Assembly: GCA_049968235.1 (NCBI GenBank)
Contig: JBMFRC010000006.1
Span: forward strand, 96,001-160,000
Origin: Candidatus Hydrogenedens sp.
GTDB lineage: Bacteria > Hydrogenedentota > Hydrogenedentia > Hydrogenedentales > Hydrogenedentaceae
Length of the DNA: 64,000 nt
Direction: 5' to 3'
The translations under genes and the position numbers were made by a program. The notes under the pieces were generated by a model. It had not been told where the DNA came from. It worked only from the letters and a program-made list of their open reading frames with translations, and did no database searches. Shown piece by piece: positions 1 to 51,583 of this stretch (position 1 is its first letter; each line of letters starts with the position of its first letter).

Positions 1-3000
1 ACTTATCCTTTTCTTATATTAGTTAATCCAACAGTAACTCAAAAATTAATAGGTACTCACTATATCTTTGGTAATGGAACCGATATAATAACTGATATAA
101 AAACACCTAGTACCGATTCAAGCACATTTTTCATTGTAGGTTATACCAATAGTTATTTTGAAAATTTTAATTGGAATAACACCGAATTTACTTCCAATCC
201 GTTTGATACCTCGCTCAATAATGGGGCAAATGAAAACTTTGATGCAATGGTATGGAGACTTCAATGGAACAGCATAGAAAATACAATCACGCCTACATGG
301 GGAACATTTTTAGGGGGAACTTTAAATGATACAGCATTGTCCATAGGTACTGTTGATAGTAATCACATTTGCTTTTCGGGTATAACAAATTCTCCTGATT
401 TCCCATTACAGGGGTGTCAAACTATAGCACCAGCATATTTACCAAGCCATTATTTATCTGCTTTTAATATATCGGGTAAAGTTATATATGTAAATCCTGA
501 CAGTTCTGTTGATCCCACTGATGGCAGTTCATGGGAAAAAGGTTACCATACTATTTCAGAAGCCATTAGTTCTGCTAACAACTATGATGAAATATGGATA
601 AAATCTGGATATTACAATGAAAGGCTTACAATTAATGGATTTTCAAATCTTATCTTGCGAGGTGGTTTTTCAGGTTTAGAAACGAATATAGATGAAATAA
701 ATCCATGGGAAAATCCAACAAAGATTTCCCCTATACAGGTAAAAGGAACGGGAAACTTAGGAACACCCACCTTAAATATTACATCGTGCATGAATATTGT
801 ATTAAATGGACTTGTTTTTGAAAGTGGAACTAATATACTTGGTGATGGTGGAGCCATAAATATTTCTAATTCCACTGTTCGTATCCTATGTTCTCAATTT
901 TACAAAAACAATTCAAATGGGAACGGTGGGGCTATCTATATTAATAATTCGTATGCAAACATCGCAAACTGTGTATTTGTTCAGAATTCTTGTTCAGGAA
1001 ACGGTTCGGGTATTTCTGCTAACGAATCTACAGTTAAAATTATACATTGCACATTTGCTAACAATTTTAATTCCGTTAGCGAAGATGTTAGCACTGTAGA
1101 CATTCAAGGTTCTACATCTATGCTAATGATACTCAACTCTATAATCTGGGCTAATGAGGGAAATACTCATGTTCAGATAAATTATCCTGAAATTATTCCT
1201 CCTGTAAATCTTCTATTCAGCCATTCAATTATCCAAAATTTCAGTTTATTATCTACACCACCATCACCCAATACCGTACTTGATACTAACCCTCTATTTA
1301 TTGAGAACCCGTCCGAAACAACACCTGGCGACTTAAATTTAAATCTGGAATCACCAGCGGTAAATCTTGCTGACCCAATCTCACTTACAATAGAATACGG
1401 TGCTGTTAATGAAGATATTCGTCGCAAACCGCGAATATTTATGGGAGAGAGTTGTAAACCTGATGCAGGAGCCTTCGAAATATTTCCTGCTCCCACACCT
1501 GTAATCACACTCTTGGGCGATAATCCCTTATATTTAACTATAAATAATCCCTACATTGAACCTGGATATGTATCTAAAGATGGATGTGATGTTGATATAA
1601 CATTTTTAGTAGATGTTACTTCCAATGTAAATACAGAACAGACAGGAGAATACACTGTAGAGTATTCGGTAATAAGTCCGTATGACCAGGGACAGATAAT
1701 AAAAGCAATCCGGAGAGTTATAGTCATCACTGCTTCATCGCAAATCATCCTTAACGGACCATCCGATGTGGTAATAGAATGTGGAAACTTTTTTATTGAC
1801 CCCGGTGCAGTAGCATTTGATTTATTGGGGAATAATATTTCCAATGAAATTATTGTTACGGATAATGTTGATTATTCAACTCCTGGAACATATACCATAG
1901 AATATAGTGTAACAGAGACAGAAAGCCATCCTGCCCTTCATGCTGTAAGAAATATAACGGTTCAGGATACAACTCCCCCAATACTTATTCTAATAGGTCC
2001 TCCGCAGATTACCATTCCTTGTGGTTCAACATGGTCTGACCCGGGATACATTGCATTTGACCAATGTTCACTTAATAATGTGCAGGTAAATGTAACAGGT
2101 AGTGTAAACACTTCTGCCACTGGAACCTATACGATTACTTACACTGCCTATGATGAGAACGAACATACATCCACTCTCACAAGAAAAGTCGTTGTTGATT
2201 GCAATATTCCTCAATTACAACAATGCCAGAATCAATGTTCTAATGATACTTCTCCTGTAGATAACGATGGAGATGGTCTATCATTTTGTATAGAGACTTG
2301 TTTGGGGACATCCGACCAGGATATAGATAGCGATGATGATAGTATGCCGGATTATTTTGAAGCAACATATAACTTAAATCCACTATTTAATGATGCGAAG
2401 GAAGATGCAGATTTAGATGGATTATCAAATCTTGAAGAATTTCTTACAAAGACCAATCCTATTGATTCCAATTCTCCATGGGAAGCCCATTATGTATCTA
2501 ATTCTGGCGATGACGATAATCCCGGGACATTGCAGTCCCCTCGTGCTACTATAACAACTACTCTTGGCAATATTAATACAAATCAAAATAAACAATCCTC
2601 TATTGTGCTGTTTCCAGGGAATTATTATGAAGATATTGTTTTATCAGAAAATATTGTTTTAATTGGAATCACAGCCTACGGTGAAAATAACAGACCTGTT
2701 ATCTACGGAAAAATTACGGGGGCTAATGGAGCAAAAATTTATAATGTTGATATAAAATCCAGTACAACCTCACCTGCAATAATTCCTGTTAAAGCCGAAG
2801 TTGAGAAGCCCATACTTCTGAATTGTGGTAATACTTCCATGCATATACGAAATGTCCGCTTTTTAGGTACAGGTTCGGAGATAGGTATATCTGTAGAAGG
2901 TGGAAATTGCTATAACACCATTATAGAGAGATGCCTCTTCCAGGATTTAAGTATTGGAATTCTAATAGGTGATAGTATCCCTGTTATCAGGAGATGCATT

Positions 3001-3957
3001 TTTAAATCATCACTTTCAACAAAAACTGATTCAACAGGTATTTATATTGAAGATAATTCAGGAAGTTACAATCCATCCAATTCTTTAGGTGATGTTAATG
3101 ACCCCAATACAGGTTGGAATACATTTAATCTTAATGGAGGAAAAGCGATAGTATGTAAAAGAGCCGAGGAGATTAAGGCTCATAACAATGACTGGGGAAC
3201 AGAGGATAGTGGAGAAATTTTAAATCAAGTTGAAGGAAATTTAGATACCCAATATTATCTGGGGAAAGGTAAAGCCATGATTGCTTCTTCACTTGCATGT
3301 GTTGTGTGGAATGCCAATAACAGAGACCCTATCATCAACGCCACGGTAGCAATAAATCCTTCTGTCTATCCACCATTAACACAAAATACAAAAGGCGTTT
3401 ATACTTTCTCATCCATTCCATCAGGGACCTATACCATAACAATATCTGCCCCTAATTTTTTAACACGACAGATTAATACAAATATACCTGAAGGAGATTT
3501 AAAATCTGAATCTGTAGCATTAAAACCTGTTGAAGGTGAAGGAACGGCTGATGGAGAAGGAACTACCGAAGGAATTCAAGAAGGTTCTACGGAAGGAACA
3601 ACTGAAGGTGAAAAAGAAATATTAATTCCTGATGTAAGAGGAATGTCTGTAGAGGAAGCAACTCAAGTATTAAATTCTGCAGGACTTCGTGTTTCAAATA
3701 CTATAAAAGAAGAATATAACCAGGAAGTTTCCAGAGGGAAAGTTACTCGAACGGAACCAGCAATCGGGACAAAAGTAGTCCAAAATACAGAAATAACTCT
3801 GGTAGTTAGTAAGGGGGCAAAAAGAAGATTTATTATTTCCTGTGGTCCTAATTACAATAGAAACTCGTATTGGGGCGATATAATCATTTGTATCTTTGCA
3901 TCCACCTTGCTTTTGTACAATCGTCCAGGAAAAGTATCTATAAATAAGAACAAATAA
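1..3957 (+). CDS. Giant secreted/surface multidomain protein, 5'-partial. It contains right-handed beta-helix repeats, three Ig-like (DUF5011-like) repeats, thrombospondin-type-3-like Ca-binding aspartate repeats, a second beta-helix, a carboxypeptidase-regulatory-like beta-sandwich, an acidic E/G/T linker, a C-terminal PASTA domain and a short hydrophobic tail.
   Basis: Frame 1 is open from nt 1 with no stop before the first ATG at 247, so the gene starts upstream of the window. Beta-helix NxxGGAI-type repeats are present (GGAINISNS, GGAIYINNS). Three repeats of about 80 aa have the form G.Y.DPG..A.D...tG.YTI.Y. Aspartate repeats read DNDGDG / DSDDDSMPD / DADLDGLSN. Residues near the C-terminus (IPDVRGMSVEEATQVLNSAGLRV...TLVVSKG) fit the PASTA consensus closely. 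Confidence 0.7.
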   Translation, partial: TYPFLILVNPTVTQKLIGTHYIFGNGTDIITDIKTPSTDSSTFFIVGYTNSYFENFNWNNTEFTSNPFDTSLNNGANENFDAMVWRLQWNSIENTITPTWGTFLGGTLNDTALSIGTVDSNHICFSGITNSPDFPLQGCQTIAPAYLPSHYLSAFNISGKVIYVNPDSSVDPTDGSSWEKGYHTISEAISSANNYDEIWIKSGYYNERLTINGFSNLILRGGFSGLETNIDEINPWENPTKISPIQVKGTGNLGTPTLNITSCMNIVLNGLVFESGTNILGDGGAINISNSTVRILCSQFYKNNSNGNGGAIYINNSYANIANCVFVQNSCSGNGSGISANESTVKIIHCTFANNFNSVSEDVSTVDIQGSTSMLMILNSIIWANEGNTHVQINYPEIIPPVNLLFSHSIIQNFSLLSTPPSPNTVLDTNPLFIENPSETTPGDLNLNLESPAVNLADPISLTIEYGAVNEDIRRKPRIFMGESCKPDAGAFEIFPAPTPVITLLGDNPLYLTINNPYIEPGYVSKDGCDVDITFLVDVTSNVNTEQTGEYTVEYSVISPYDQGQIIKAIRRVIVITASSQIILNGPSDVVIECGNFFIDPGAVAFDLLGNNISNEIIVTDNVDYSTPGTYTIEYSVTETESHPALHAVRNITVQDTTPPILILIGPPQITIPCGSTWSDPGYIAFDQCSLNNVQVNVTGSVNTSATGTYTITYTAYDENEHTSTLTRKVVVDCNIPQLQQCQNQCSNDTSPVDNDGDGLSFCIETCLGTSDQDIDSDDDSMPDYFEATYNLNPLFNDAKEDADLDGLSNLEEFLTKTNPIDSNSPWEAHYVSNSGDDDNPGTLQSPRATITTTLGNINTNQNKQSSIVLFPGNYYEDIVLSENIVLIGITAYGENNRPVIYGKITGANGAKIYNVDIKSSTTSPAIIPVKAEVEKPILLNCGNTSMHIRNVRFLGTGSEIGISVEGGNCYNTIIERCLFQDLSIGILIGDSIPVIRRCIFKSSLSTKTDSTGIYIEDNSGSYNPSNSLGDVNDPNTGWNTFNLNGGKAIVCKRAEEIKAHNNDWGTEDSGEILNQVEGNLDTQYYLGKGKAMIASSLACVVWNANNRDPIINATVAINPSVYPPLTQNTKGVYTFSSIPSGTYTITISAPNFLTRQINTNIPEGDLKSESVALKPVEGEGTADGEGTTEGIQEGSTEGTTEGEKEILIPDVRGMSVEEATQVLNSAGLRVSNTIKEEYNQEVSRGKVTRTEPAIGTKVVQNTEITLVVSKGAKRRFIISCGPNYNRNSYWGDIIICIFASTLLLYNRPGKVSINKNK

Positions 3958-3974: not shown

Positions 3975-5021
3975 TTAAGGCTCAGATTTTTTGTTGTGCT
4001 GTTTCTTTTTAATTGCCTTACGGTAATGCATAACCGCATCTGTGTGGGTATCAATATCTTTACTAAATGTATGTGTCCTCCCATCTGCATTAGATACAAA
4101 ATAAAGATATTCCCCTAATTCAGGAAATAAAGCAGAGCGTAAACTGGTAAGACCGGGATTTGATATAGGAGTAGGAGGTAAACCTTTATATTTATAGGTA
4201 TTATATGGGGAATCCACTTCCTTATCGGCATTGGTTAGTAATACTCCATATTTTTGATTGGCATATTGCAATGTCGCATCAATTTGGAGAGGCATGTCTT
4301 TCTTTAATCGATTATATATAACTTGTGCAATAAGAGGTCGTTCTTCATCTATTTTTGCTTCTTCTTCAATTAAAGAGGCTATTATAACTTTTTGATATTT
4401 CTCTTCATTGGAAAGTTCAAAGCCATTTTCCTCCATCAATTTTTTCCATTCTTTATCAAACTGACTAATCATTACATCAGCAAGGGTTTTAGCATCAGGT
4501 ATCTCTTCAAATAGATATGTCCCCGGCATTAAAAATCCTTCTACGGTAGGACCCGCGATATTTTTCTCTTTTGCATACTCACTAGAATTTACAATTTTTA
4601 GAAATTCTTCCGGGTCTGGAGCAATCATTGATATTTGTTTATTTGTTAAACCCTCCGGAACAGTTATTTTATATGCACATATAGGACGAATAGGACCTTT
4701 TAGTAGAAGTTCATATATTTGTTGAACAGAATATCCTTTGGGAATAGAATATATACCATATTTTATATCTTTATCCCCTCCTTTTATTCTTAACAAGGCT
4801 AAAAAGAAAATTTCATGGGGAATAAGTCCTTTTTCTTTAAGTAGAAACGCAATATCTTGTGCGGTGTTTCCTTTATTTACGGTTATTTCAACAGGTTCTC
4901 CCGGAACCCCTTCCCTTACTATATATACATACCCCCCTGCAATAACAATGCCCATTACCAATAATAAACATATCACTATAAATAAACCCACAAGTAATAT
5001 TTTTAATATGATTCTTTTCAT
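3975..5021 (-). CDS. mltG: Endolytic murein transglycosylase MltG (YceG family)
   Basis: The protein has an N-terminal TM helix and the YceG-like body including KGLPPTPISNPG. It lies adjacent to ruvX/yqgF, which is a conserved pairing. Confidence 0.85.
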   Translation of the reverse strand: MKRIILKILLVGLFIVICLLLVMGIVIAGGYVYIVREGVPGEPVEITVNKGNTAQDIAFLLKEKGLIPHEIFFLALLRIKGGDKDIKYGIYSIPKGYSVQQIYELLLKGPIRPICAYKITVPEGLTNKQISMIAPDPEEFLKIVNSSEYAKEKNIAGPTVEGFLMPGTYLFEEIPDAKTLADVMISQFDKEWKKLMEENGFELSNEEKYQKVIIASLIEEEAKIDEERPLIAQVIYNRLKKDMPLQIDATLQYANQKYGVLLTNADKEVDSPYNTYKYKGLPPTPISNPGLTSLRSALFPELGEYLYFVSNADGRTHTFSKDIDTHTDAVMHYRKAIKKKQHNKKSEP

Positions 5022-5032
5022 ATCTCTACTTT

Positions 5033-5560
5033 TTATTTACTTTTATGCAATTCTAGATATGTTTCTAATAGTTTTGCAGCTGCAATTTTATCAATAATAC
5101 CTCTCTGTTTTTTTTGTCCTACGCCGATGTTTGTCAACGCTCGTTGGGCTACAGTAGTTGTTAACCTTTCATCTATCTTTTCAATGTCTACATTAATTTT
5201 TCCTTTGATTTCTTCTATAAAACTTTTCACTTTTTCCGTTTGTATCCCTTCACTTCCATCCATTTTTAAGGGATAACCAATAATCACTTTTTTTACCTCT
5301 TTTTCTTTAATAATCTCCTGTATTGTTTTGATGAAATCTGTGGTTTTCCGCAAATCTATTACCATCAGCGGAAATGCAAAAATCCGGAGTGGGTCACTTA
5401 TGGCAAGTCCTATGCGAACTTCACCATAATCAATTGCAAGTATTCTTCCTTCTTCCAATTCAGGTTCCTTTCTTATTTTAATATTTAAACATTTTATTTT
5501 ATAATTGTATAAATCTGTTAATTTTTCACAAGAATTATAACGCTCTTGGGAGTTTTTCAT
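5033..5560 (-). CDS. ruvX: Putative pre-16S rRNA nuclease / Holliday-junction resolvase-like YqgF (RuvX)
   Basis: The protein contains ILAIDYGEVRIGLAISD and a C-terminal GYPLKMDGSEG...AAAKLLETYL. The annotated ATG at 5560 overlaps the divergent ATG at 5559. The real start is probably the TTG at about 5458 (aaggaa RBS upstream), which gives an about 141-aa protein. Confidence 0.75.
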   Translation of the reverse strand: MKNSQERYNSCEKLTDLYNYKIKCLNIKIRKEPELEEGRILAIDYGEVRIGLAISDPLRIFAFPLMVIDLRKTTDFIKTIQEIIKEKEVKKVIIGYPLKMDGSEGIQTEKVKSFIEEIKGKINVDIEKIDERLTTTVAQRALTNIGVGQKKQRGIIDKIAAAKLLETYLELHKSK

Positions 5561-7223: not shown

Positions 7224-7263
7224 AGATTATCTCCCTCATAAAAAATCTTACATAAAGAGAAAG

Positions 7264-7337
7264 TGGCGGCGCAGGGATTCGAACCCCGGACACGCGGATT
7301 ATGATTCCGCTGCTCTAACCAACTGAGCTACGCCGCC
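7264..7337 (-). tRNA. tRNA with CAT anticodon (elongator tRNA-Met, or tRNA-Ile2 if lysidinylated)
   Basis: The reverse complement reads GGCGGCGTAGCTCAGTTGGTTAGAGCAGCGGAATCATAATCCGCGTGTCCGGGGTTCGAATCCCTGCGCCGCCA. It has a cloverleaf with a GTTCGAATC T-loop, the anticodon loop is ATCATAA (CAT), and CCA is encoded. Position 1:72 is a G-C pair, so it is not an initiator. Confidence 0.9.
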
Positions 7338-15955: not shown

Positions 15956-16615
15956 TTATAGTAGATTAAAACCTGTTAAACCGAAAGTGAGTAAAAAACC
16001 TGCTATATAATGCAAAGGAGGCGAGATAATTCGTGAACCTAATGTTATCGCAATAATAAGTCCAAAGGGGCCCATTTGTTGTAAGAATCGTTGTCCTTCC
16101 GGTGGAAGAAAATAATTTAAGACATGATGTCCATCTAAAGGAGGTAGTGGAATACAATTGAAAAGTAGTAAAACAAGATTTATCATTACAATGGAAATGG
16201 ATACTAAACAGGCTGGAGAGGAAAACATTTCATCCGGGGTTGAAATACCATTAATGATAACGGTTAATCTTAAAACGAAAGTAAATGCTATAGCCAATAA
16301 TAAATTTGCTGAGGGTCCTGCTATAGCAACAAAAACAGAATGAAGTCTTGGATTTCTTAAATTCCGAATGTTTACAGGAACAGGTTTTGCCCAACCAAAT
16401 AGAAATGGGAATTGCGTTATCATCATCATTAACGGCAAAATAAAAGTTCCCAACAGGTCCGCATGTTTTATGGGATTTAATGTTAATCGTCCCAACATTC
16501 GTGCTGTATGGTCACCAAATCGGTCTGCAGCAGCTGCATGTGCCGCTTCATGTGCGGATAAGCAAAATAGCAAGCATATATATTGTACCAAGATTTGTAA
16601 AATATGGTCAGCCAC
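15956..16615 (-). CDS. Site-2 protease family intramembrane metalloprotease (peptidase M50)
   Basis: The HEAAH zinc motif lies in a TM helix, followed by the downstream NxxPxxPLDG motif (NCIPLPPLDG), in a polytopic membrane protein. Confidence 0.8.
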   Translation of the reverse strand: MADHILQILVQYICLLFCLSAHEAAHAAAADRFGDHTARMLGRLTLNPIKHADLLGTFILPLMMMITQFPFLFGWAKPVPVNIRNLRNPRLHSVFVAIAGPSANLLLAIAFTFVLRLTVIINGISTPDEMFSSPACLVSISIVMINLVLLLFNCIPLPPLDGHHVLNYFLPPEGQRFLQQMGPFGLIIAITLGSRIISPPLHYIAGFLLTFGLTGFNLL

Positions 16616-25957: not shown

Positions 25958-26043
25958 TTTAATATACCTTAAATACAGTTGCTTTTATAATTCACACTTT
26001 GTTATAAATTATAATTAAACTAAAACACATAAGGAGTACTTTT

Positions 26044-26451
26044 ATGCCATTAATTCAATGGAACGATTCTTTAAGTGTCGGCATTCCTTCTATGGATACA
26101 CAACATCAAAAATTAATCAATATTATAAATCGACTACATGATGCTATGCGTGAAGGAAAAGGGAAAGATATTATATCCCCCGTATTAACGGAGTTACATA
26201 ATTATACCGTTACTCACTTTACAGCAGAAGAAAAATTAATGGAACAATGTAAATACAGTGGTCTTGCCGTTCAGAAACAACAACATAATAATTTTGTCAA
26301 TCAAATTAAAAAGTATCAGTCTGACTATGAAAAAGGTTCATTAACTCTTCCTCTTTCGGTTTCCAATTACTTAAAAGACTGGCTTATTAATCATATTCAG
26401 GGTCTGGATAAAAAATATGAGACATCTATGAAATCAGCAGGAATTAAATAG
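26044..26451 (+). CDS. Bacteriohemerythrin (hemerythrin-like di-iron protein), copy 1
   Basis: The protein contains MDTQHQ...HFTAEE...QHNNF...WLINHIQGLDKKY, a His/Glu/Asp iron-ligand pattern. Confidence 0.85.
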   Translation: MPLIQWNDSLSVGIPSMDTQHQKLINIINRLHDAMREGKGKDIISPVLTELHNYTVTHFTAEEKLMEQCKYSGLAVQKQQHNNFVNQIKKYQSDYEKGSLTLPLSVSNYLKDWLINHIQGLDKKYETSMKSAGIK

Positions 26452-26462
26452 GAGAAATATCT

Positions 26463-26870
26463 ATGGCTTTTCTCAATTGGAACGATAATTTTAATATTGG
26501 AATATTTCAAATTGATGCTCAACATAAAAATCTGGTTAATATTATTAATCAGTTATATGAAGCGATGAGTGTAGGGAAAGGAAAAGAAATTATTGGGAAA
26601 ATTGTAAAAGAATTGGCGGGTTATACAATTACTCATTTTGGCACTGAAGAGAAACTCATGCAGGAACATGGCTATCCTGAATTGCCTCAACATAAAAAAG
26701 AACATGAACTTTTTGTTAAAAAAGTTCAGGAATTTAATAATGAAATTCAAAAAGGGAATCTTATCATTGTTTCTAATGTTGCCAATTTCTTGAAGGAATG
26801 GTTGATAAAACATATTCAAGGAACCGATAAGAAATATGGTCCATTTTTAAAGGGAAAAGGGGTAAAATAG
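26463..26870 (+). CDS. Bacteriohemerythrin, copy 2 (tandem paralogue)
   Basis: It has the same length and motif pattern as copy 1 (IDAQHKN...HFGTEE...WLIKHIQGTDKKY) and starts 12 nt after copy 1 ends. Confidence 0.85.
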   Translation: MAFLNWNDNFNIGIFQIDAQHKNLVNIINQLYEAMSVGKGKEIIGKIVKELAGYTITHFGTEEKLMQEHGYPELPQHKKEHELFVKKVQEFNNEIQKGNLIIVSNVANFLKEWLIKHIQGTDKKYGPFLKGKGVK

Positions 26871-37813: not shown

Positions 37814-38080
37814 ATGAAACAATTTAAAAACCTTGAATCAGTAGGATGGATTTTCTGGGCGGTTTGTAGTGTTTTATTACTTGTTCCGAATTACTTTCTC
37901 TCTGGGTTACTGCTGTATGATAACTCCCTTGGTGCTTATATAGGTTTCACTATAGGAATGTCTGCTGTTATAGGTGCCGTTATTGCATGGGTTGTCAACG
38001 AAATTCTTTATAGGATAAATCTTGCAAAATACAAAGAAACAAAGAAGAGAGAAAGAAAAAAGAAAAAGAAAGCCAGTTAA
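37814..38080 (+). CDS. Small membrane protein with Lys/Arg-rich C-terminal tail
   Basis: An 88-aa protein with two TM helices followed by KETKKRERKKKKKAS. It starts 4 nt after the HK gene. Confidence 0.45.
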   Translation: MKQFKNLESVGWIFWAVCSVLLLVPNYFLSGLLLYDNSLGAYIGFTIGMSAVIGAVIAWVVNEILYRINLAKYKETKKRERKKKKKAS

Positions 38081-38103
38081 ATGGTTTATTTTGGAGAACA
38101 GCC

Positions 38104-39582
38104 TTGAAACTACTTGATTTGCTTGATTATGTGGAAAAAAATCCGAAAGATTATGAAAAACGTTGGAAATTAGCAAAGAAACTGTATCAAAACAAAGATT
38201 ATACATTAGCATTAGAACATTTGAAGGTGCTTATAAATGAATGGGAGTGCCATATCAATGTTTATCGGTTCTTATCTGCCACATTATATCGTCTCGGAAA
38301 ATATGAAGAATCTATAAATGAGTTAAAAAAAGCCATTAAAAAATGGGATAAAGAACCCGGACTATATGAACAATTAGGAAGAGTATTGATTTCATCCGGG
38401 AAAATTGAAGAGGCAAAAAAAGTTTATGAAAAACTTGCTGAAATTTGTCCTGAACATAAATGGGCACAAACGACGGTATCACGAATAGAAAGTTTTTTGA
38501 GTAAAAAACATGTTCGAAAGACACCCTTTCCGTTTACTTTTGGCTCTGATTTCGATTTACTCCCTGAATCTATCTGTAAGCGTTGTGGAGCAGAAAATCA
38601 GGGGTATATTGACCGTTGCTGGAAATGTGGAGAAATACTAACATCTGAAACAAATCCGTCCGATGTAACTACTACTGAAATCTGTTTAAACCCCGTTACT
38701 ATATTAACACCAGAAATCATAACGCTTCTTCTTGGATTGGTTACTATTTCATTTATATCTATAAATATTTTTATGTCTCTCAAGTTTTTTTTAGGAGATT
38801 ACAAATCCGTTCATGTTAGTTTGACCTTCTGGGATATTTATCGGTATGACCTTTTCCCTGCTCGCTTCCTTACCAGTATTATTCTACTTTTCATTTCACC
38901 TATTTTTATCAAGTTAGGGCTAAACATTACAGGTTTACGAGATAAAATTCCTTATAATCTAATCGTTTTAACAGGACTGGTTATTGCTTCTTTTATCAAT
39001 TTAGCATCATGGTTATCCAAACCTTTATTTTTATGGGGCTTTATACTGGTTCCAATCTTTTCTTTCCTTGTTATTTTCGGAACATTTGCCATATCTCTTA
39101 TAAAAACACTAAATCTTTGTTTATTTCAGATGTTTATGTTATTCCTATCAACTGTTATTATTTTTAGTGCTGTTGAATCTCATATCCTGAATACCTTCAT
39201 AAATCCTTTTACTCAAATTCCTACTGTTGCCCGCTTCTTCAAATACCAGTATATACAACCACCCCACACGATAGAATTAAATAGTCCGGATGGTTCCCCT
39301 ATAATCAAAAATATATCCTTTGATAAAACAGGTTCTTATTGGCTTGACATGAGAGCCAATAAAATGAAGATAAACCTATTTTTAGACAACCCCGACACAT
39401 TCATCCTTGAAGTTAATAAAGGTGAAACAAAACCTATTATCTACCAAAAAAGTAAAGATAATAAATGGTCTGCGATCTGCTTTGTAAATACAGATGAAAT
39501 CTTTACGATTAAAATCTCTACGGAAAATAAAACTCCATTTGTTGCCCGAATACAAAGTCTTTTTATTTTAAGTCCCCAGTAG
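38104..39582 (+). CDS. TPR-repeat / zinc-ribbon / polytopic membrane protein (hypothetical)
   Basis: The N-terminus has TPR-like helices. A Cx2C...Cx2C ribbon (CKRCGAENQGYIDRCWKCGE) follows, then about six TM helices and a C-terminal soluble domain. Confidence 0.5.
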   Translation: MKLLDLLDYVEKNPKDYEKRWKLAKKLYQNKDYTLALEHLKVLINEWECHINVYRFLSATLYRLGKYEESINELKKAIKKWDKEPGLYEQLGRVLISSGKIEEAKKVYEKLAEICPEHKWAQTTVSRIESFLSKKHVRKTPFPFTFGSDFDLLPESICKRCGAENQGYIDRCWKCGEILTSETNPSDVTTTEICLNPVTILTPEIITLLLGLVTISFISINIFMSLKFFLGDYKSVHVSLTFWDIYRYDLFPARFLTSIILLFISPIFIKLGLNITGLRDKIPYNLIVLTGLVIASFINLASWLSKPLFLWGFILVPIFSFLVIFGTFAISLIKTLNLCLFQMFMLFLSTVIIFSAVESHILNTFINPFTQIPTVARFFKYQYIQPPHTIELNSPDGSPIIKNISFDKTGSYWLDMRANKMKINLFLDNPDTFILEVNKGETKPIIYQKSKDNKWSAICFVNTDEIFTIKISTENKTPFVARIQSLFILSPQ

Positions 39583-41197
39583 AGAGCAAAAATTCTCGTG
39601 CAATTTTATTGTCTGGGAAGCGATACAGACATTCGCGATACCATTTTATACTCTCTTCTTTTTCATCTAATTCTTCTGCACATCTACCTAATAATAAATA
39701 AATATTTCCATCATCTATTTTTGTAAGGGCTTCTTTCAAAACTTTGTAAGCGTTATAGTAATCTTTTTTTCTTATCAATTCTTGAGCATAACCTTCATAC
39801 ATAGCATAAGTTGCAAATTTATAACTTACAAGATTTCGATATTTTTCTTCACAATCCTGCCCTAATATTAGTAGTTTTTCTGCTTGCCGAAGTTTATAGT
39901 CGGGAACCCATAATTTATAAGTAAGAAATACAATAGATATAAGTCCGAAAACAGAAAGAATAAATCTTGTTTTCGTGTTAGCATTCAATAACTTATTAAT
40001 TTGTATATTTTCCCTTTTGAACATTCTTTGTTTCTCATTACACAATGACAACAACGCTACGACCAGATGAGAGGAACTAATTAAAATCGGGTTTAAAAGA
40101 GAAACTAATATGAATACCAACCATACATAAGGATTTCTATAAATAAAAATAGGAGAAAGATAAAATAAACTTACAAATATAAGTCCGGATACTCCTGTTT
40201 CCGATAACAACTCAAGTATGTCATTATGGGCATGTAAAGTCAATAGTTCATTCCGAATATGCATACTTCCATAACTTGAATGTAAGGCATCAGCCAGATA
40301 TTTCGGACTCCAATAATAAAAATTTCCCCAACCCACACCTAAAAACGGATTAGATAAAAACATTCGAATAGAACCATCGTATATCCACAAACGCACACGA
40401 AATCCCACATCCATATCAGAAAAACTATACCTTAAACGCTCATATATAAATGGTAATGCAAGTAACATTCCCAATAACATAGATACCAAAATGTATGTGT
40501 TTTTTTTATTAAACCCTCTATTTTCTTTATATATATTTGTGAAATAAAAAGTCATTATTATTAAGATAGAAAACCATGAACTCCGTGAATTGCTTAAAAT
40601 TAGTCCGCATCCCAAAACAAAAAAACTAAGAAACTTAAACATGTCTCTCATTGGAAACTTATCCCAGCGAACCAGAATACCTACCATCACCATAGCGATA
40701 TATGTTCCAGCAAGATTTTGATTTCCGAAAACAGAATACAACTGTTTGTAAAATGAATAATTTGGAAATAAAACAGGTAACAAATCGAGATATTGCACAA
40801 TTAATGAAATAGCGACAAATACCCCAGATAATAAAATCCCATACTCTATATATGTTTCATATTTTCCATCCCTATTTAAATCGGATATTAAAACAAGTGT
40901 AATAAAAACTAAAAACAACTCCATAGAACGGAGTAATGTTTGTTCTGGAACTTTCGCATAAAAAAAAGTTAAAAATAAATATAAATTTAGGATAAAAAAG
41001 AAAATGAGAGGTATAGGTGTAAATAATCTTTCTCTATTTTTCAGGAAGTAAGGTAACAATAATATTAAAAAGATACTTAACATAATCTCTTTTGGATAAA
41101 GAAATGATGTAAATTCAAAAGAAAATACAATCGGAGGAATAAGTAAAGTGAAAAGTAGAATAATTCCAACTACTTTTTCCTTCCCCACTAAATTCAT
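39563..41197 (-). CDS. O-antigen ligase/polymerase-like (Wzy_C family) membrane protein with C-terminal TPR
   Basis: Ten or more TM helices with a large periplasmic loop, and a C-terminal TPR-like region. It overlaps the convergent upstream gene by 20 nt. Confidence 0.55.
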   Translation of the reverse strand: MNLVGKEKVVGIILLFTLLIPPIVFSFEFTSFLYPKEIMLSIFLILLLPYFLKNRERLFTPIPLIFFFILNLYLFLTFFYAKVPEQTLLRSMELFLVFITLVLISDLNRDGKYETYIEYGILLSGVFVAISLIVQYLDLLPVLFPNYSFYKQLYSVFGNQNLAGTYIAMVMVGILVRWDKFPMRDMFKFLSFFVLGCGLILSNSRSSWFSILIIMTFYFTNIYKENRGFNKKNTYILVSMLLGMLLALPFIYERLRYSFSDMDVGFRVRLWIYDGSIRMFLSNPFLGVGWGNFYYWSPKYLADALHSSYGSMHIRNELLTLHAHNDILELLSETGVSGLIFVSLFYLSPIFIYRNPYVWLVFILVSLLNPILISSSHLVVALLSLCNEKQRMFKRENIQINKLLNANTKTRFILSVFGLISIVFLTYKLWVPDYKLRQAEKLLILGQDCEEKYRNLVSYKFATYAMYEGYAQELIRKKDYYNAYKVLKEALTKIDDGNIYLLLGRCAEELDEKEESIKWYRECLYRFPDNKIAREFLLSTGDLK

Positions 41198-41215
41198 AGA
41201 TATACCCTGTAATTA

Positions 41216-48290: not shown

Positions 48291-48338
48291 TACAATGTTA
48301 TAAACAACACATGTCTTCTTTATAGAAGGAATATAATT

Positions 48339-49814
48339 ATGCAAATAAGTATAAATAAGTCCCTTTATAAATTTATTCTCTTTCTGTCTATAATTTTTTC
48401 GATGTTTATTATAACTTTCCACAGTTATACAGATGAACCTGCTTTACCTAAAGGATTATCTTCAAGTGAAAATACAACTTCTCCACAGTTAAAAGACAAT
48501 AATGAACCTGATCTACCTCAAGGATTACAATCCCAACCGACAAATGAACCTCAACTTCCACAGGGACTGGGGGAAATCGCCATAAAAGAAGAAAAAAAAG
48601 AAGAGAATAAACAAAAAAAACCGACGCCTCTTAATATAGACATAAAGGGATTTTTGGATAATCGTGCCGGTATTCGTTATAGAGAAGACAAGCAACAGTC
48701 AAAAGATTTAATCCTTGGGGAATCTCGTTTACAATTAAGAGCGGATAAATTCTGGGATAAGGTGGGTATTGAAACCACAGGGGACTTTTATGGAGATTTT
48801 GTTCAGGAGAAATTAAATTTTGACCTGCGTCAGGCACGGTTAACATGGACATTATCACCTACTTTAGACTTACGGATAGGTCGTCAAATCCTTACATGGG
48901 GAACAGGAGACCAAATCTTTATAAATGACCTCTTTCCCAAGGATTGGAATTCATTTTTTGTAGGTAGAGAACAGGAATATTTAAAAGCTCCTTCTGATTC
49001 TATAAAATTAGGTTGGTATCCTGAATGGTTTAACTTTGAACTTGTTTATACTCCTCGTTTCACACCGGATAGATATATCACAGGAAACCCAATTACATTT
49101 TGGAATCCTCTTTTTAATAGACTTCAGGGAGAAGAGCAAGAAATCCGACCTGACCATCCCGGTCCTCGATTTCGTGATGATGAATGGGCTTTCCGTGCGT
49201 ATAGAAAAATTAATAACTTTGAATTTGCCTTGTATGCTTATTCTGGAAGATGGAAAAGCCCCGGCGGTCAAAAATTATTACCTCCACTACAATCATACTT
49301 CCCAAAACTAAATGTTTATGGGACCAGTTTAAGAGGCCCTGTGTGGAAAGGAATATTATCTTTAGAAATGGGTTACTATGACTCTAAAGAGGACCGCGAT
49401 GGGACAAGTCCCTTTATTAATAACTCGGAAATTCGTTTCTTAGTAGGTTATGAACAGGAATTAGCAAAGGACTTTACAGGTGCTTTCCAGGTTTATTTAG
49501 AACATATGTTAGATTACAGAAATTATGAAAGCAATCAACCTTTCTGGATACATAATAAAGATGAAAATCGTCTATTGACTACAATCCGTCTTACCCGACA
49601 ATTGATGAATCAAAATCTTATTTTGTCATGGTTCATGTATTATTCCCCAACAGACCAGGATTTCTTTTTAAGACCTAATGTTCGTTATAAAATAAATGAT
49701 AAATGGTGGGTTGAAGGTGGAGCCAATATATTTATTGGAAACGAACCTTATACTTTCTTCGGACAATTTATGGAAAACTCAAACATCTATATAGGTGCAA
49801 GATGTTATTTTTAA
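48339..49814 (+). CDS. Putative outer-membrane beta-barrel protein with N-terminal EPxLPxGL repeats
   Basis: A signal/anchor sequence is followed by three EP.LP[KQ]GL repeats and a Lys/Glu-rich segment. The long beta-rich body ends in ...IGARCYF, a C-terminal aromatic residue typical of OMP barrels. Confidence 0.5.
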   Translation: MQISINKSLYKFILFLSIIFSMFIITFHSYTDEPALPKGLSSSENTTSPQLKDNNEPDLPQGLQSQPTNEPQLPQGLGEIAIKEEKKEENKQKKPTPLNIDIKGFLDNRAGIRYREDKQQSKDLILGESRLQLRADKFWDKVGIETTGDFYGDFVQEKLNFDLRQARLTWTLSPTLDLRIGRQILTWGTGDQIFINDLFPKDWNSFFVGREQEYLKAPSDSIKLGWYPEWFNFELVYTPRFTPDRYITGNPITFWNPLFNRLQGEEQEIRPDHPGPRFRDDEWAFRAYRKINNFEFALYAYSGRWKSPGGQKLLPPLQSYFPKLNVYGTSLRGPVWKGILSLEMGYYDSKEDRDGTSPFINNSEIRFLVGYEQELAKDFTGAFQVYLEHMLDYRNYESNQPFWIHNKDENRLLTTIRLTRQLMNQNLILSWFMYYSPTDQDFFLRPNVRYKINDKWWVEGGANIFIGNEPYTFFGQFMENSNIYIGARCYF

Positions 49815-49843
49815 TCATCTAACACTATACAGGACACTGTATA

Positions 49844-51583
49844 ATGCAAAAGCAAAAAAAAGTAAGATTTTATTATATTTTCTTATTGCTAACAATTCCT
49901 TTTCTTATAACAAATAATGTCTTTGCTAAAAAGAAATCTGCAGATAAAAAAACGCCTTCTCAACCGTCTATACCCATCAATCAATATGAGAACCAAAAAT
50001 ACAGTGAATATTCAGGACCTAAAGGCATATTGGATATAGATGTAACCGATGTCGTAGGGAAGTATTGGGGAGCAAGAGTTGATTTATTAAATATAGAGGA
50101 TGGGAAACGATATCGTTTTGATTTTCCGGAGGGGAAAGGAGAACAAAAAGTCCCTATTGGAAGTTTTAGGGCTTATATTTTTGCATATGATAATGGGGTA
50201 CCTATAATGGTGCAAATCAAGGATATTACAATAAAAGAAAATCAACCCGTTTTTATTCCAATTACACTTCTGGAAGGGACAACAGGTCCTCTTGTTTTGA
50301 GAGATTTCGACAGTGATGCTGACCTTGTGCTGGATAGAGTTGAAATAGAATCAGGGACAGACCCTTACAATCCTCTGGATGTCCCCGGTAAAAAGACAAT
50401 ACCTGTCGAAAACAAAGTTATACAAAATAAACCGGGATGGTACAAAGGTGAATTATGTTGCTTTTCTAAATATAGCATCGGTAGTGAAACAGTAGGAGAA
50501 CTAATCAAAAGGGCAGAAAAAGATGGGCTTGATTTTCTCGCTATAACAGATATAAACACATTGAAATCCATTGAAGACCCCGAATATCATTCCGATAAAC
50601 TTGTTCTCATACCTGCAATGAAATGGGGAAATGAACAGATGGGATATGCTCTGGTGTATTGTCCTCGAACACCTTTAGATAGTCCGACAACAATTCCTGA
50701 GGCACAAGCGGAATGTATTCGTGTCCAGGCACAGGGTGGAATTTTTGCTATCGCTCATCCTTGTTTTCCGACAGGCTTCTGGCGTTGGGGTTTAAATTAT
50801 GTAAATGCTATTCAAGTGTGGTGTAGAGAGTGGAGAGCCATTCCACCTCTTACTATAGATAAATTAGATGACTGGCTCAAGGAAAAGAAAAATGGAAAAT
50901 TTATATATTCACTTACAGCCGCAGTAAATGAATCGAAGATTGCATCTGTTTCTGCCAATTCTCAATCAACACGCTTCTGGGATTATGAAGTAGCACGAGG
51001 TGCTATGGTATGTGGCATTGCAGGAAGTCATTCTTCAAACCCTTCAGTTCCCTTAGGAAAGCCCATAACCTATATACGAGCAGAGAATAAATCATTAGGG
51101 GCTATCCTTGAAGGACTTCGTTTGGGAAGAACTTATGTATCTTCTGGGATTAATGGCCCAAAATTAAGTTTTATGGCAGATTCATTAGCGGATAATAAAA
51201 TTGATGTAAGCATTGGAGGTATTGTCCCTCTGGGAATAGATATTCGTTTTGAAGCAATTGCTGAAAATGCAAAAGGAAAAAAATTAGAAGTGTTATTTAA
51301 CGGAAGACCTATCGTTACAAAAATCATTGAAAGTGATAACTTTGCAATCCGTTTTACGGACAAACCTATACGTAGTGGTGCCTACCGACTTCGCATTATT
51401 GGTGCTCCGGAGAATACAAAAGGCTTTGGTGATATAGAAGTCTATGCAATGACCAGCCCTATATATGCACAGGATATTACTCCCGAATTACTCTGGCGTT
51501 TGCCCAAATTTGACCCCAAAAAAGCATGGATAGAAATTAAGCCCAGTGAAGAAGGTTCATACCTCAATCTCCCTGAAAACTAA
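49844..51583 (+). CDS. Secreted PHP-like (CehA/McbA-family) metallohydrolase, putative
   Basis: A signal peptide precedes the segment LDFLAITDINTL...IFAIAHPCFP, which resembles PHP/CehA-McbA metal-binding strands. The assignment is tentative. Confidence 0.4.
   Translation: MQKQKKVRFYYIFLLLTIPFLITNNVFAKKKSADKKTPSQPSIPINQYENQKYSEYSGPKGILDIDVTDVVGKYWGARVDLLNIEDGKRYRFDFPEGKGEQKVPIGSFRAYIFAYDNGVPIMVQIKDITIKENQPVFIPITLLEGTTGPLVLRDFDSDADLVLDRVEIESGTDPYNPLDVPGKKTIPVENKVIQNKPGWYKGELCCFSKYSIGSETVGELIKRAEKDGLDFLAITDINTLKSIEDPEYHSDKLVLIPAMKWGNEQMGYALVYCPRTPLDSPTTIPEAQAECIRVQAQGGIFAIAHPCFPTGFWRWGLNYVNAIQVWCREWRAIPPLTIDKLDDWLKEKKNGKFIYSLTAAVNESKIASVSANSQSTRFWDYEVARGAMVCGIAGSHSSNPSVPLGKPITYIRAENKSLGAILEGLRLGRTYVSSGINGPKLSFMADSLADNKIDVSIGGIVPLGIDIRFEAIAENAKGKKLEVLFNGRPIVTKIIESDNFAIRFTDKPIRSGAYRLRIIGAPENTKGFGDIEVYAMTSPIYAQDITPELLWRLPKFDPKKAWIEIKPSEEGSYLNLPEN

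Follow-up and report, generated by a model that had tools for sequence, protein, structure and literature searches.

The window analysed here is a stretch of 64,000 nucleotides (nt) from Candidatus Hydrogenedens sp. (GCA_049968235.1, contig JBMFRC010000006.1, positions 96,001 to 160,000), with a G+C content of 35%. It opens inside the gene of a giant, presumably secreted surface protein, and the subject of this study is the C-terminal end of that protein: a disordered linker, a PASTA domain and a 45-amino-acid (aa) tail that carries an invariant cysteine. Our evidence is computational throughout. Frame +1 is uninterrupted from base 1 of the window to a stop codon at 3955–3957, giving a product of 1318 aa. 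An earlier note on this DNA, made from the letters alone, had put the protein at more than 1300 aa; this holds for the window, while the complete length is 1877 aa, as seen in P0001, a ~99.6% identical protein from a Candidatus Hydrogenedens metagenome-assembled genome (MAG) where it is named immunoglobulin-like domain-containing protein. P0001 also supplies the N-terminal 559 aa that lie outside the window and that the note had listed as missing, namely a signal-peptide-like start and DUF7948 (Pfam on P0001). The features of the gene within the window are as follows.

1–3957, forward strand: 3' part of the gene for the 1877-aa secreted surface protein (1318 codons plus stop)
478–1494, forward strand: first presumed right-handed beta-helix region (approximate limits)
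1498–2200, forward strand: three Bact_surface_Ig-like (DUF5011-type) domains
2251–2484, forward strand: thrombospondin type-3-like, Asp-rich calcium-binding repeats
2485–3270, forward strand: second presumed beta-helix region (approximate limits)
3304–3519, forward strand: carboxypeptidase-regulatory-like (transthyretin-like) beta-sandwich
3529–3618, forward strand: E/G/T-rich disordered linker
3625–3813 (aa 1209–1271), forward strand: PASTA domain
3820–3846, forward strand: tail signature K-R-R-F-I-I-S-C-G, with the invariant Cys at 3841–3843
3847–3879, forward strand: polar spacer PNYNRNSYWG, ending in an invariant Asp (3877–3879)
3880–3918, forward strand: short hydrophobic segment IIICIFASTLLLY, presumed membrane helix (Kyte-Doolittle mean 2.59 over 13 residues)
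3919–3957, forward strand: Lys/Arg-rich C-terminal end NRPGKVSINKNK and stop codon

Most of the domains that the earlier note had named upstream of the linker are recovered by profile searches. The DUF5011-like immunoglobulin repeats match PF16403 in three stretches (E=4.2e-48; limits from sequence landmarks), and the thrombospondin-type repeats give a partial match to NCBIfam NF047639 (throspo3_MtsD; aa 747–824, E=2.8e-9). The carboxypeptidase-regulatory-like domain, at 30.9 bits, stays just below the 32.3-bit cut-off of PF13620, but is supported at the level of fold, with a predicted local distance difference test score (pLDDT) of ~88 in an AlphaFold 2 model and a Foldseek match to carboxypeptidase D domain II (E=2e-4). 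The pectate-lyase-like beta-helices remain presumed: neither region of the window protein has a direct Pfam match, the first being placed by sequence landmarks, a weak PemA pectinesterase match and homologues that are annotated over the same stretch as PF13229 Beta_helix or PF02415 Chlam_PMP, and the second by sequence pattern and homologues.

The AlphaFold model, which covers the last 224 aa of the window protein, passes in order through a confident beta-sandwich, the E/G/T linker (flexible, as had been claimed, with pLDDT <50 at model residues 86–108), a confident PASTA domain, an unstructured stretch and a 17-residue helix of low confidence across YWGDIIICIFASTLLLY. The PASTA domain is genuine: it matches PF03793 with E=1e-17 (64.3 bits against a gathering score of 23.2), is modelled in the alpha/beta PASTA fold with a pLDDT of ~90, and superposes in Foldseek on PASTA domains of PrkC/PknB (3py9, 3ouv, 5e10) with a root-mean-square deviation of 0.9–1.0 Å at 31–37% identity. 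Textbooks generally present PASTA as part of penicillin-binding proteins and kinases. The window domain resembles those of the PknB/PrkC/StkP kinases and class B penicillin-binding proteins in fold, in its extracytoplasmic location and in lying near a membrane anchor, but here there is neither kinase nor transpeptidase, and a single PASTA stands after a giant adhesin-like passenger and directly before a candidate sorting signal.

The tail itself, KRRFIISCGPNYNRNSYWGDIIICIFASTLLLYNRPGKVSINKNK, occupies nt 3820–3954. In seven orthologues of 70–80% identity the protein ends in the same way, ...SKG-x-KRRFIISCG-x10-[GSD]D-hydrophobic-basic, and the wider consensus is K-R-R-F-I-[IV]-S-C-G, a polar spacer of 10–11 residues, Asp, ~13 hydrophobic residues and Lys/Arg. 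The signature is unchanged in P0001–P0007 and in families B–E introduced below, the spacer length and Asp in the alignments, and a basic end in all families; the Cys is invariant in the tail alignment. Three variants, KRTFIVSCG, KPRFIVSCG and KRKFIFSCG, were found independently of the DNA pattern used below to collect most members, and F-I-[IVF]-S-C-G, the spacer length and the Asp are constant across them. The odd composition of this end could be taken for the product of a frameshift or read-through at the end of the gene, but composition is all that speaks for such an artefact, and we give it next to no credence. The frame is kept in the 70–80%-identical orthologues, the other two frames contain stops, and codon changes within the motif are mostly synonymous: against a 79%-identical orthologue the whole tail shows 13 synonymous and 12 non-synonymous changes, and the motif KRRFIISCGPNY.RNSYWGDIIIC ~10 synonymous changes and 1 non-synonymous. 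The tail is subject to purifying selection.

What sets the tail apart is its occurrence on unrelated proteins. KRRFIISCG was back-translated into a degenerate DNA pattern and scanned against 185,579 species (one genome each) and metagenome contigs. About 85 matches lie in random frames with an early stop after them; the true matches, at 11 genome loci and 16 metagenome loci, all lie 42–49 codons before a stop that closes a long open reading frame (ORF), and at each of them the motif leads into a polar spacer, then Asp, a hydrophobic run and Lys/Arg. The tail closes at least seven otherwise unrelated families of presumably secreted proteins in this genus.

Family A: the beta-helix/Ig giant protein (the window protein)
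Family B: a 1782-aa GLUG-repeat protein with four PASTA domains and a linker of the same type as in the window protein, ~400 aa of (EGTPEG)n
Family C: a partial PASTA protein
Family D: an M4 peptidase of the thermolysin type (1242 aa), which has a TIG domain but lacks PASTA
Families E and F: cohesin-like proteins with one or two PASTA domains
Family G: a small protein with two PASTA domains

A hidden Markov model (HMM) built from families B–G alone aligns to the whole of the window tail with a score of 33.7 bits (E=2.7e-9 among 1958 sequences), while chance carriers of the nine-residue pattern score 16 bits or less. The tail domain ends 0–10 residues from the stop in all members, and N-termini judged by eye as signal-peptide-like are present in P0001–P0008, L119 and L096. 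Several tail genes can share a genome: there are three in MAG CAKZKR01 and two in Candidatus Hydrogenedens terephthalaticus. Since unrelated proteins of the same genomes bear the same tail, it behaves as a sorting or anchoring signal, as the earlier note had suggested, and it is a separate, portable unit. The hallmarks by which Haft has recognised such signals are seen here: a tripartite layout at the extreme C-terminus (signature, hydrophobic segment, basic cluster), shared by non-homologous proteins, several per genome. Bacterial surface display of proteins is determined by C-terminal sorting signals.

Short proteins consisting of PASTA and tail were left out of the family count except for P0180 and P0185, and are probably gene-call fragments of larger genes. 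The 173-aa P0220, for example, begins 22 nt after a 582-aa CarboxypepD_reg/cohesin gene (L124, 8230–10522), and a 5.3-kb stretch upstream of P0215 is without a called gene (L126). Gene calling seems to break in repetitive linkers, so that databases probably list too few tail proteins or list them in pieces. A word-index search with the 117-aa PASTA-plus-tail segment as single query gave one candidate, the index being limited for short queries, and its profile version gave only proteins of ~205 aa or less, mostly PASTA fragments.

PASTA and tail are often, but not always, found together. Most tail families carry PASTA directly upstream, in most of them one residue from the motif, and the terminal PASTA of family A shares 58–70% identity with its counterpart in P0185, an unrelated cohesin protein. 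It is closer to this domain than to other PASTA, which argues that PASTA and tail have moved between genes as a unit. In the syntenic orthologue P0008 (46% identical), on the other hand, there is no PASTA, and a D/G/S-rich linker leads directly into KKCGCNQKGNKTSISE-IAIISLAISMLGMY-RPKKNKRL; to judge from these sequences, PASTA has been inserted or lost between the linker and the Cys-containing tail. With PASTA missing here and from the M4-protease family while the tail is kept, PASTA is the optional element and the tail the constant one. Dispensability in an orthologue is a further difference from the PASTA of kinases and penicillin-binding proteins, and it speaks against the idea in the earlier note that the protein is anchored to peptidoglycan through PASTA. 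The note had also called the architecture uncommon. By textbook standards it is, but within the phylum it is common: an exhaustive HMMER search with PASTA plus tail returns 10,823 representative proteins at E<=0.001, headed by giant proteins with up to 32 PASTA repeats, and the named members of those clusters that were looked up from this list are all Hydrogenedentota. Sorted surface proteins appear to draw on PASTA as a general repeat module, and they use it widely both as a repeat and as a stalk.

Among the metagenome proteins P0057–P0205 are very large ones (e.g. P0057, P0062 and P0099) with up to 32 PASTA repeats and, in many cases, Cys-containing tails. P0127 and P0145 end in IPTL- or PEP-CTERM-like tails, and other multi-PASTA proteins in dockerin-like ends.

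Neither this tail nor the second tail type described below is matched by any Pfam-A (2025) or NCBIfam release 20 model, even at E<=10, and the curated HMMs for JDVT-CTERM, Synerg-CTERM, LPXTG, PEP-CTERM and GlyGly-CTERM in these two databases find no match in the tails. The same search recognised the positive controls P0040 (Synerg-CTERM, 33.8 bits) and P0043 (IPTL-CTERM). Searches of the paper library used here returned no mention of either tail motif or of a link between PASTA and Hydrogenedentes.

The tail is best read as a tripartite C-terminal sorting signal that is specific to this lineage, has an invariant Cys and is akin to MYXO-CTERM. Signals of that invariant-Cys tripartite kind are processed by myxosortases, with lipidation of an Lgt-like type and export by type II secretion proposed (bioRxiv 10.1101/2023.06.07.544157; PMC11980579). 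The tail and MYXO-CTERM are both tripartite, and in both an invariant Cys comes after a small residue and a disordered linker stands upstream; they share many unrelated clients per genome, which for the tail are apparently Sec-exported, and a diderm host, in which surface display would require passage of the outer membrane. They differ in signature, which is G-C-G-C in MYXO-CTERM (Myxococcota, myxosortase MrtX) and K-R-R-F-I-[IV]-S-C-G in the Hydrogenedentota tail, and in the 10–11-residue polar spacer with its invariant Asp before the helix; MYXO-CTERM-type signatures abut the transmembrane helix without a spacer (bioRxiv 10.1101/2023.06.07.544157). The MYXO-CTERM model TIGR03901 (20-bit cut-off) does not match the tail at E<=10, and, unlike for MYXO-CTERM, no myxosortase was identified for it.

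CGP-CTERM (Thermococcales, archaeomyxosortase MrtA) comes close in another respect: the window protein reads Cys-Gly-Pro, and Cys-Gly is followed by a helix and a basic end. The CGP-CTERM signal is ~20 aa long where our tail has ~45, its motif abuts the helix, and its host is archaeal rather than bacterial. We rejected membership in CGP-CTERM because the position after C-G reads P, S, A, V, N, E or R, because of the spacer, and because TIGR04288 gives no match. That the tail belongs after all to one of the described Cys signals, CGP-CTERM or MYXO-CTERM, and is processed by a known type of myxosortase is, in our estimation, improbable. The shared Cys after a small residue, tripartite layout and upstream disordered linker (bioRxiv 10.1101/2023.06.07.544157) would be accounted for, but not the variable Pro, the spacer, the separate taxa (Thermococcales and Myxococcota) or the failure of TIGR04288, TIGR03901, JDVT-CTERM and Synerg-CTERM in NCBIfam release 20 to match at E<=10.

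Two further known systems share single traits with the tail. LPXTG signals of sortase A in Gram-positive bacteria likewise have a hydrophilic spacer between signature and helix and then a basic end; the tail differs in lacking an LPXTG-like motif and a TIGR01167 match, in its diderm host and in having Cys as the key residue. The lipobox of Lgt/Lsp substrates, [LVI][ASTVI][GAS]C, fits the I-I-S-C or I-V-S-C of nearly all members (one variant, I-F-S-C, falls outside the pattern), here preceded, with K-R-R-F, by basic residues and a short hydrophobic run. Unlike a lipobox of the Lgt type, the Cys motif lies 36 residues from the C-terminus and not at the end of an N-terminal signal peptide; the helix is downstream (inverted topology) and a full h-region, as in a signal peptide, is missing. 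PMC11980579 remarks that a defined lipobox is lacking. The tail is an apparently unmodelled Cys-type signal that combines a hydrophilic spacer with a clear lipobox-like context, both absent from the four described Cys-type signals, and the context bears on the question in the myxosortase field of which enzyme lipidates the Cys.

On balance we favour, with some reserve, the view that window 3529–3957 is a C-terminal anchoring module made up of linker, PASTA and the 45-residue tripartite sorting signal, in which the Cys would be modified and the helix removed, so that the protein is displayed on the surface; the tail suggests an apparently undescribed surface-anchoring signal. After Sec export, the hydrophobic helix would halt transfer and hold the protein in the cytoplasmic membrane, its basic end in the cytoplasm. 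Dedicated machinery would recognise the signature and modify the Cys, most likely by lipidation given the lipobox-like I-[IV]-S-C context; the membrane helix would then be cut off and the lipid-anchored protein passed to the surface of the diderm cell, as has been proposed for MYXO-CTERM proteins. The polar spacer suggests that recognition or cleavage takes place outside the bilayer and not within it, and PASTA may act as a membrane-proximal stalk, possibly in contact with peptidoglycan or its precursors. Diderm markers are present on related contigs: a Lip_A_acyltrans protein (lipid A acyltransferase), an Alginate_exp outer-membrane protein and a T2SSE-family ATPase.

Several points weigh against this view. 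Cleavage and lipidation are things we purely infer. Most of the families were found through the motif itself, which makes its invariance partly an effect of ascertainment, and only F-I-x-S-C-G is strictly constant once the independent variants are included. None of the four described Cys-type signals has a spacer, and the analogy with them may therefore not hold for the enzyme. The hydrophobic core, at a mean hydropathy of 2.6, is only 13 residues long and falls short of the classical transmembrane rule of 19 residues at 1.6. A cognate sortase or exosortase, which the earlier note had thought of, was found neither in the window nor in ~347 kb of related loci. More broadly, the window contains no CPBP, rhomboid, sortase or exosortase gene, the ~347 kb contain no multi-pass ORF with three CPBP motifs, and near five tail genes there is no sorting enzyme, their neighbours being housekeeping or unrelated genes. 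An enzyme that is not adjacent is what one expects of a housekeeping enzyme with many clients, yet this leaves the mechanism unproven. The only membrane proteins of the window noted in this search were the Wzy_C/TPR protein listed below and a four-helix Peptidase_M50 protein of the site-2 protease family (15956–16615, reverse strand; 219 aa). No other intramembrane protease is encoded in the window, and nothing connects the M50 protein to the tail.

The failure to find a sorting enzyme is one of the observations that fit the main rival scheme, close to the view taken in the earlier note, in which the tail is a permanent, uncleaved anchor in the cytoplasmic membrane and the adjacent PASTA binds periplasmic peptidoglycan or lipid II, tethering or positioning the protein. 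KRRFIISCG would then be a juxtamembrane motif acting through contact with lipid head groups or a disulfide. Helix and basic end fit a stop-transfer anchor, and a PASTA one residue from the motif recalls the membrane-proximal PASTA of PknB-type kinases. We nonetheless hold this scheme to be unlikely, if worth keeping in sight. A plain anchor needs no nine-residue motif that is identical across unrelated proteins while the helix varies freely; the passengers are typically extracellular (M4 protease, cohesin, GLUG, Ig, beta-helix) and, at up to 1,900 aa, hard to fit into the periplasm; PASTA is missing from the syntenic orthologue and the protease family; and the core is short for a stable anchor.

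A second type of tail occurs in the same phylum, G-C-x-G-C followed by 14–18 residues, L-G-D-L-F-L-x-G-L and R-R, which was seen directly behind PASTA or EF-hand in ~25 of the top 149 HMMER matches. It resembles the KRRFIISCG type in its order of Cys motif, spacer, Asp, helix and basic end and in often standing behind PASTA, and differs in having two cysteines and a longer spacer. An HMM of this second type finds tails of the P0017 type (E=6e-6) but not the KRRFIISCG type; aligned with hhalign, the two types are in register at the Asp/helix boundary at P=0.04. We do not claim homology, since the HMM of one misses the other and the hhalign P is 0.04: the two tail types share a design, and their homology is unproven.

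Three tandem beta-helix paralogues of 746, 1455 and ~1470 aa in the Hydrogenedens MAG GCA_012522755.1 (L003, 2510–14659; also L004 and L005) end in KGCNC[GD].SK, ~25 residues and NLSDWLL-helix-RR[SR], a tail of the second type (E=6e-6) without PASTA. In P0129 (~160–215) a Cys tail, ESGCTAAVGSTTARPPNGD-CMVLLFLVLGLCAL-SRKARYR, is internal, and after it come another stretch resembling a signal peptide and another cohesin-like region; the protein looks like two fused genes, as has been reported for MXAN_5598 with its internal MYXO-CTERM.

We advance, as a tentative and rather doubtful generalisation, that Hydrogenedentota have an undescribed sorting system in which dozens of giant exoproteins are directed towards the surface by a lipobox-like Cys signal that lies at the C-terminus, has an extramembrane spacer and usually stands behind PASTA. 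The enzyme would then either belong to a type that has had no link to sorting so far, or be Lgt working on a substrate of inverted topology. To our knowledge, the recognition of each new C-terminal sorting signal has up to now led on to a new sorting enzyme. If the generalisation is true, PASTA would serve this diderm phylum as a general module for surface stalks or wall contact. Hydrogenedentota are uncultivated and abundant in anaerobic digesters, and a simple HMM of the tail would improve the annotation of their surface proteomes.

The giant gene lies between a gene of the glutamine/glutamate-tRNA ligase family (outside the window) and the convergent MltG (YceG) and RuvX genes, so that its flanks are housekeeping genes, and the same gene order is found in the contigs of P0003 and P0008. 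A link between the giant gene and the adjacent MltG gene was considered and rejected, because the two genes converge and the orthologue that lacks PASTA has the same gene order; as far as PASTA goes, the proximity of MltG is a coincidence. An exact search with the MltG of the window gave no match in the sequence collection used, from which this strain is therefore absent. These neighbours and the other features of the window are as follows.

3975–5021, reverse strand: MltG/YceG gene, convergent with the giant gene; the stop codons of the two are only 17 nt apart
5033–5560, reverse strand: RuvX gene, its order kept in the orthologous contigs L001 and L002, including the PASTA-less one
7263–7337, reverse strand: tRNA-Met (CAT), the only tRNA in the window
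26008–26870, forward strand: two tandem ORFs of ~140 aa with similar ends, W-L-I-x-H-I-Q-G-x-D-K-K-Y
38014–39582, forward strand: multi-pass membrane protein with tetratricopeptide repeats (TPR), adjoining and convergent with the Wzy_C gene
39563–41212, reverse strand: Wzy_C (O-antigen-ligase-like) membrane protein with a TPR end
48291–49814 and 49823–51583, forward strand: two adjacent ORFs of 507 and 586 aa without a Pfam match

The tandem ORFs at 26008–26870 bear a resemblance to hemerythrin-like proteins. Protein O-glycosylases occur among Wzy_C proteins, and one may speculate about a link between the Wzy_C protein and the E/G/T linkers. The last residues of the 507-aa ORF, ...NIYIGARCYF, are similar to the signature found at the C-terminus of outer-membrane beta-barrels.

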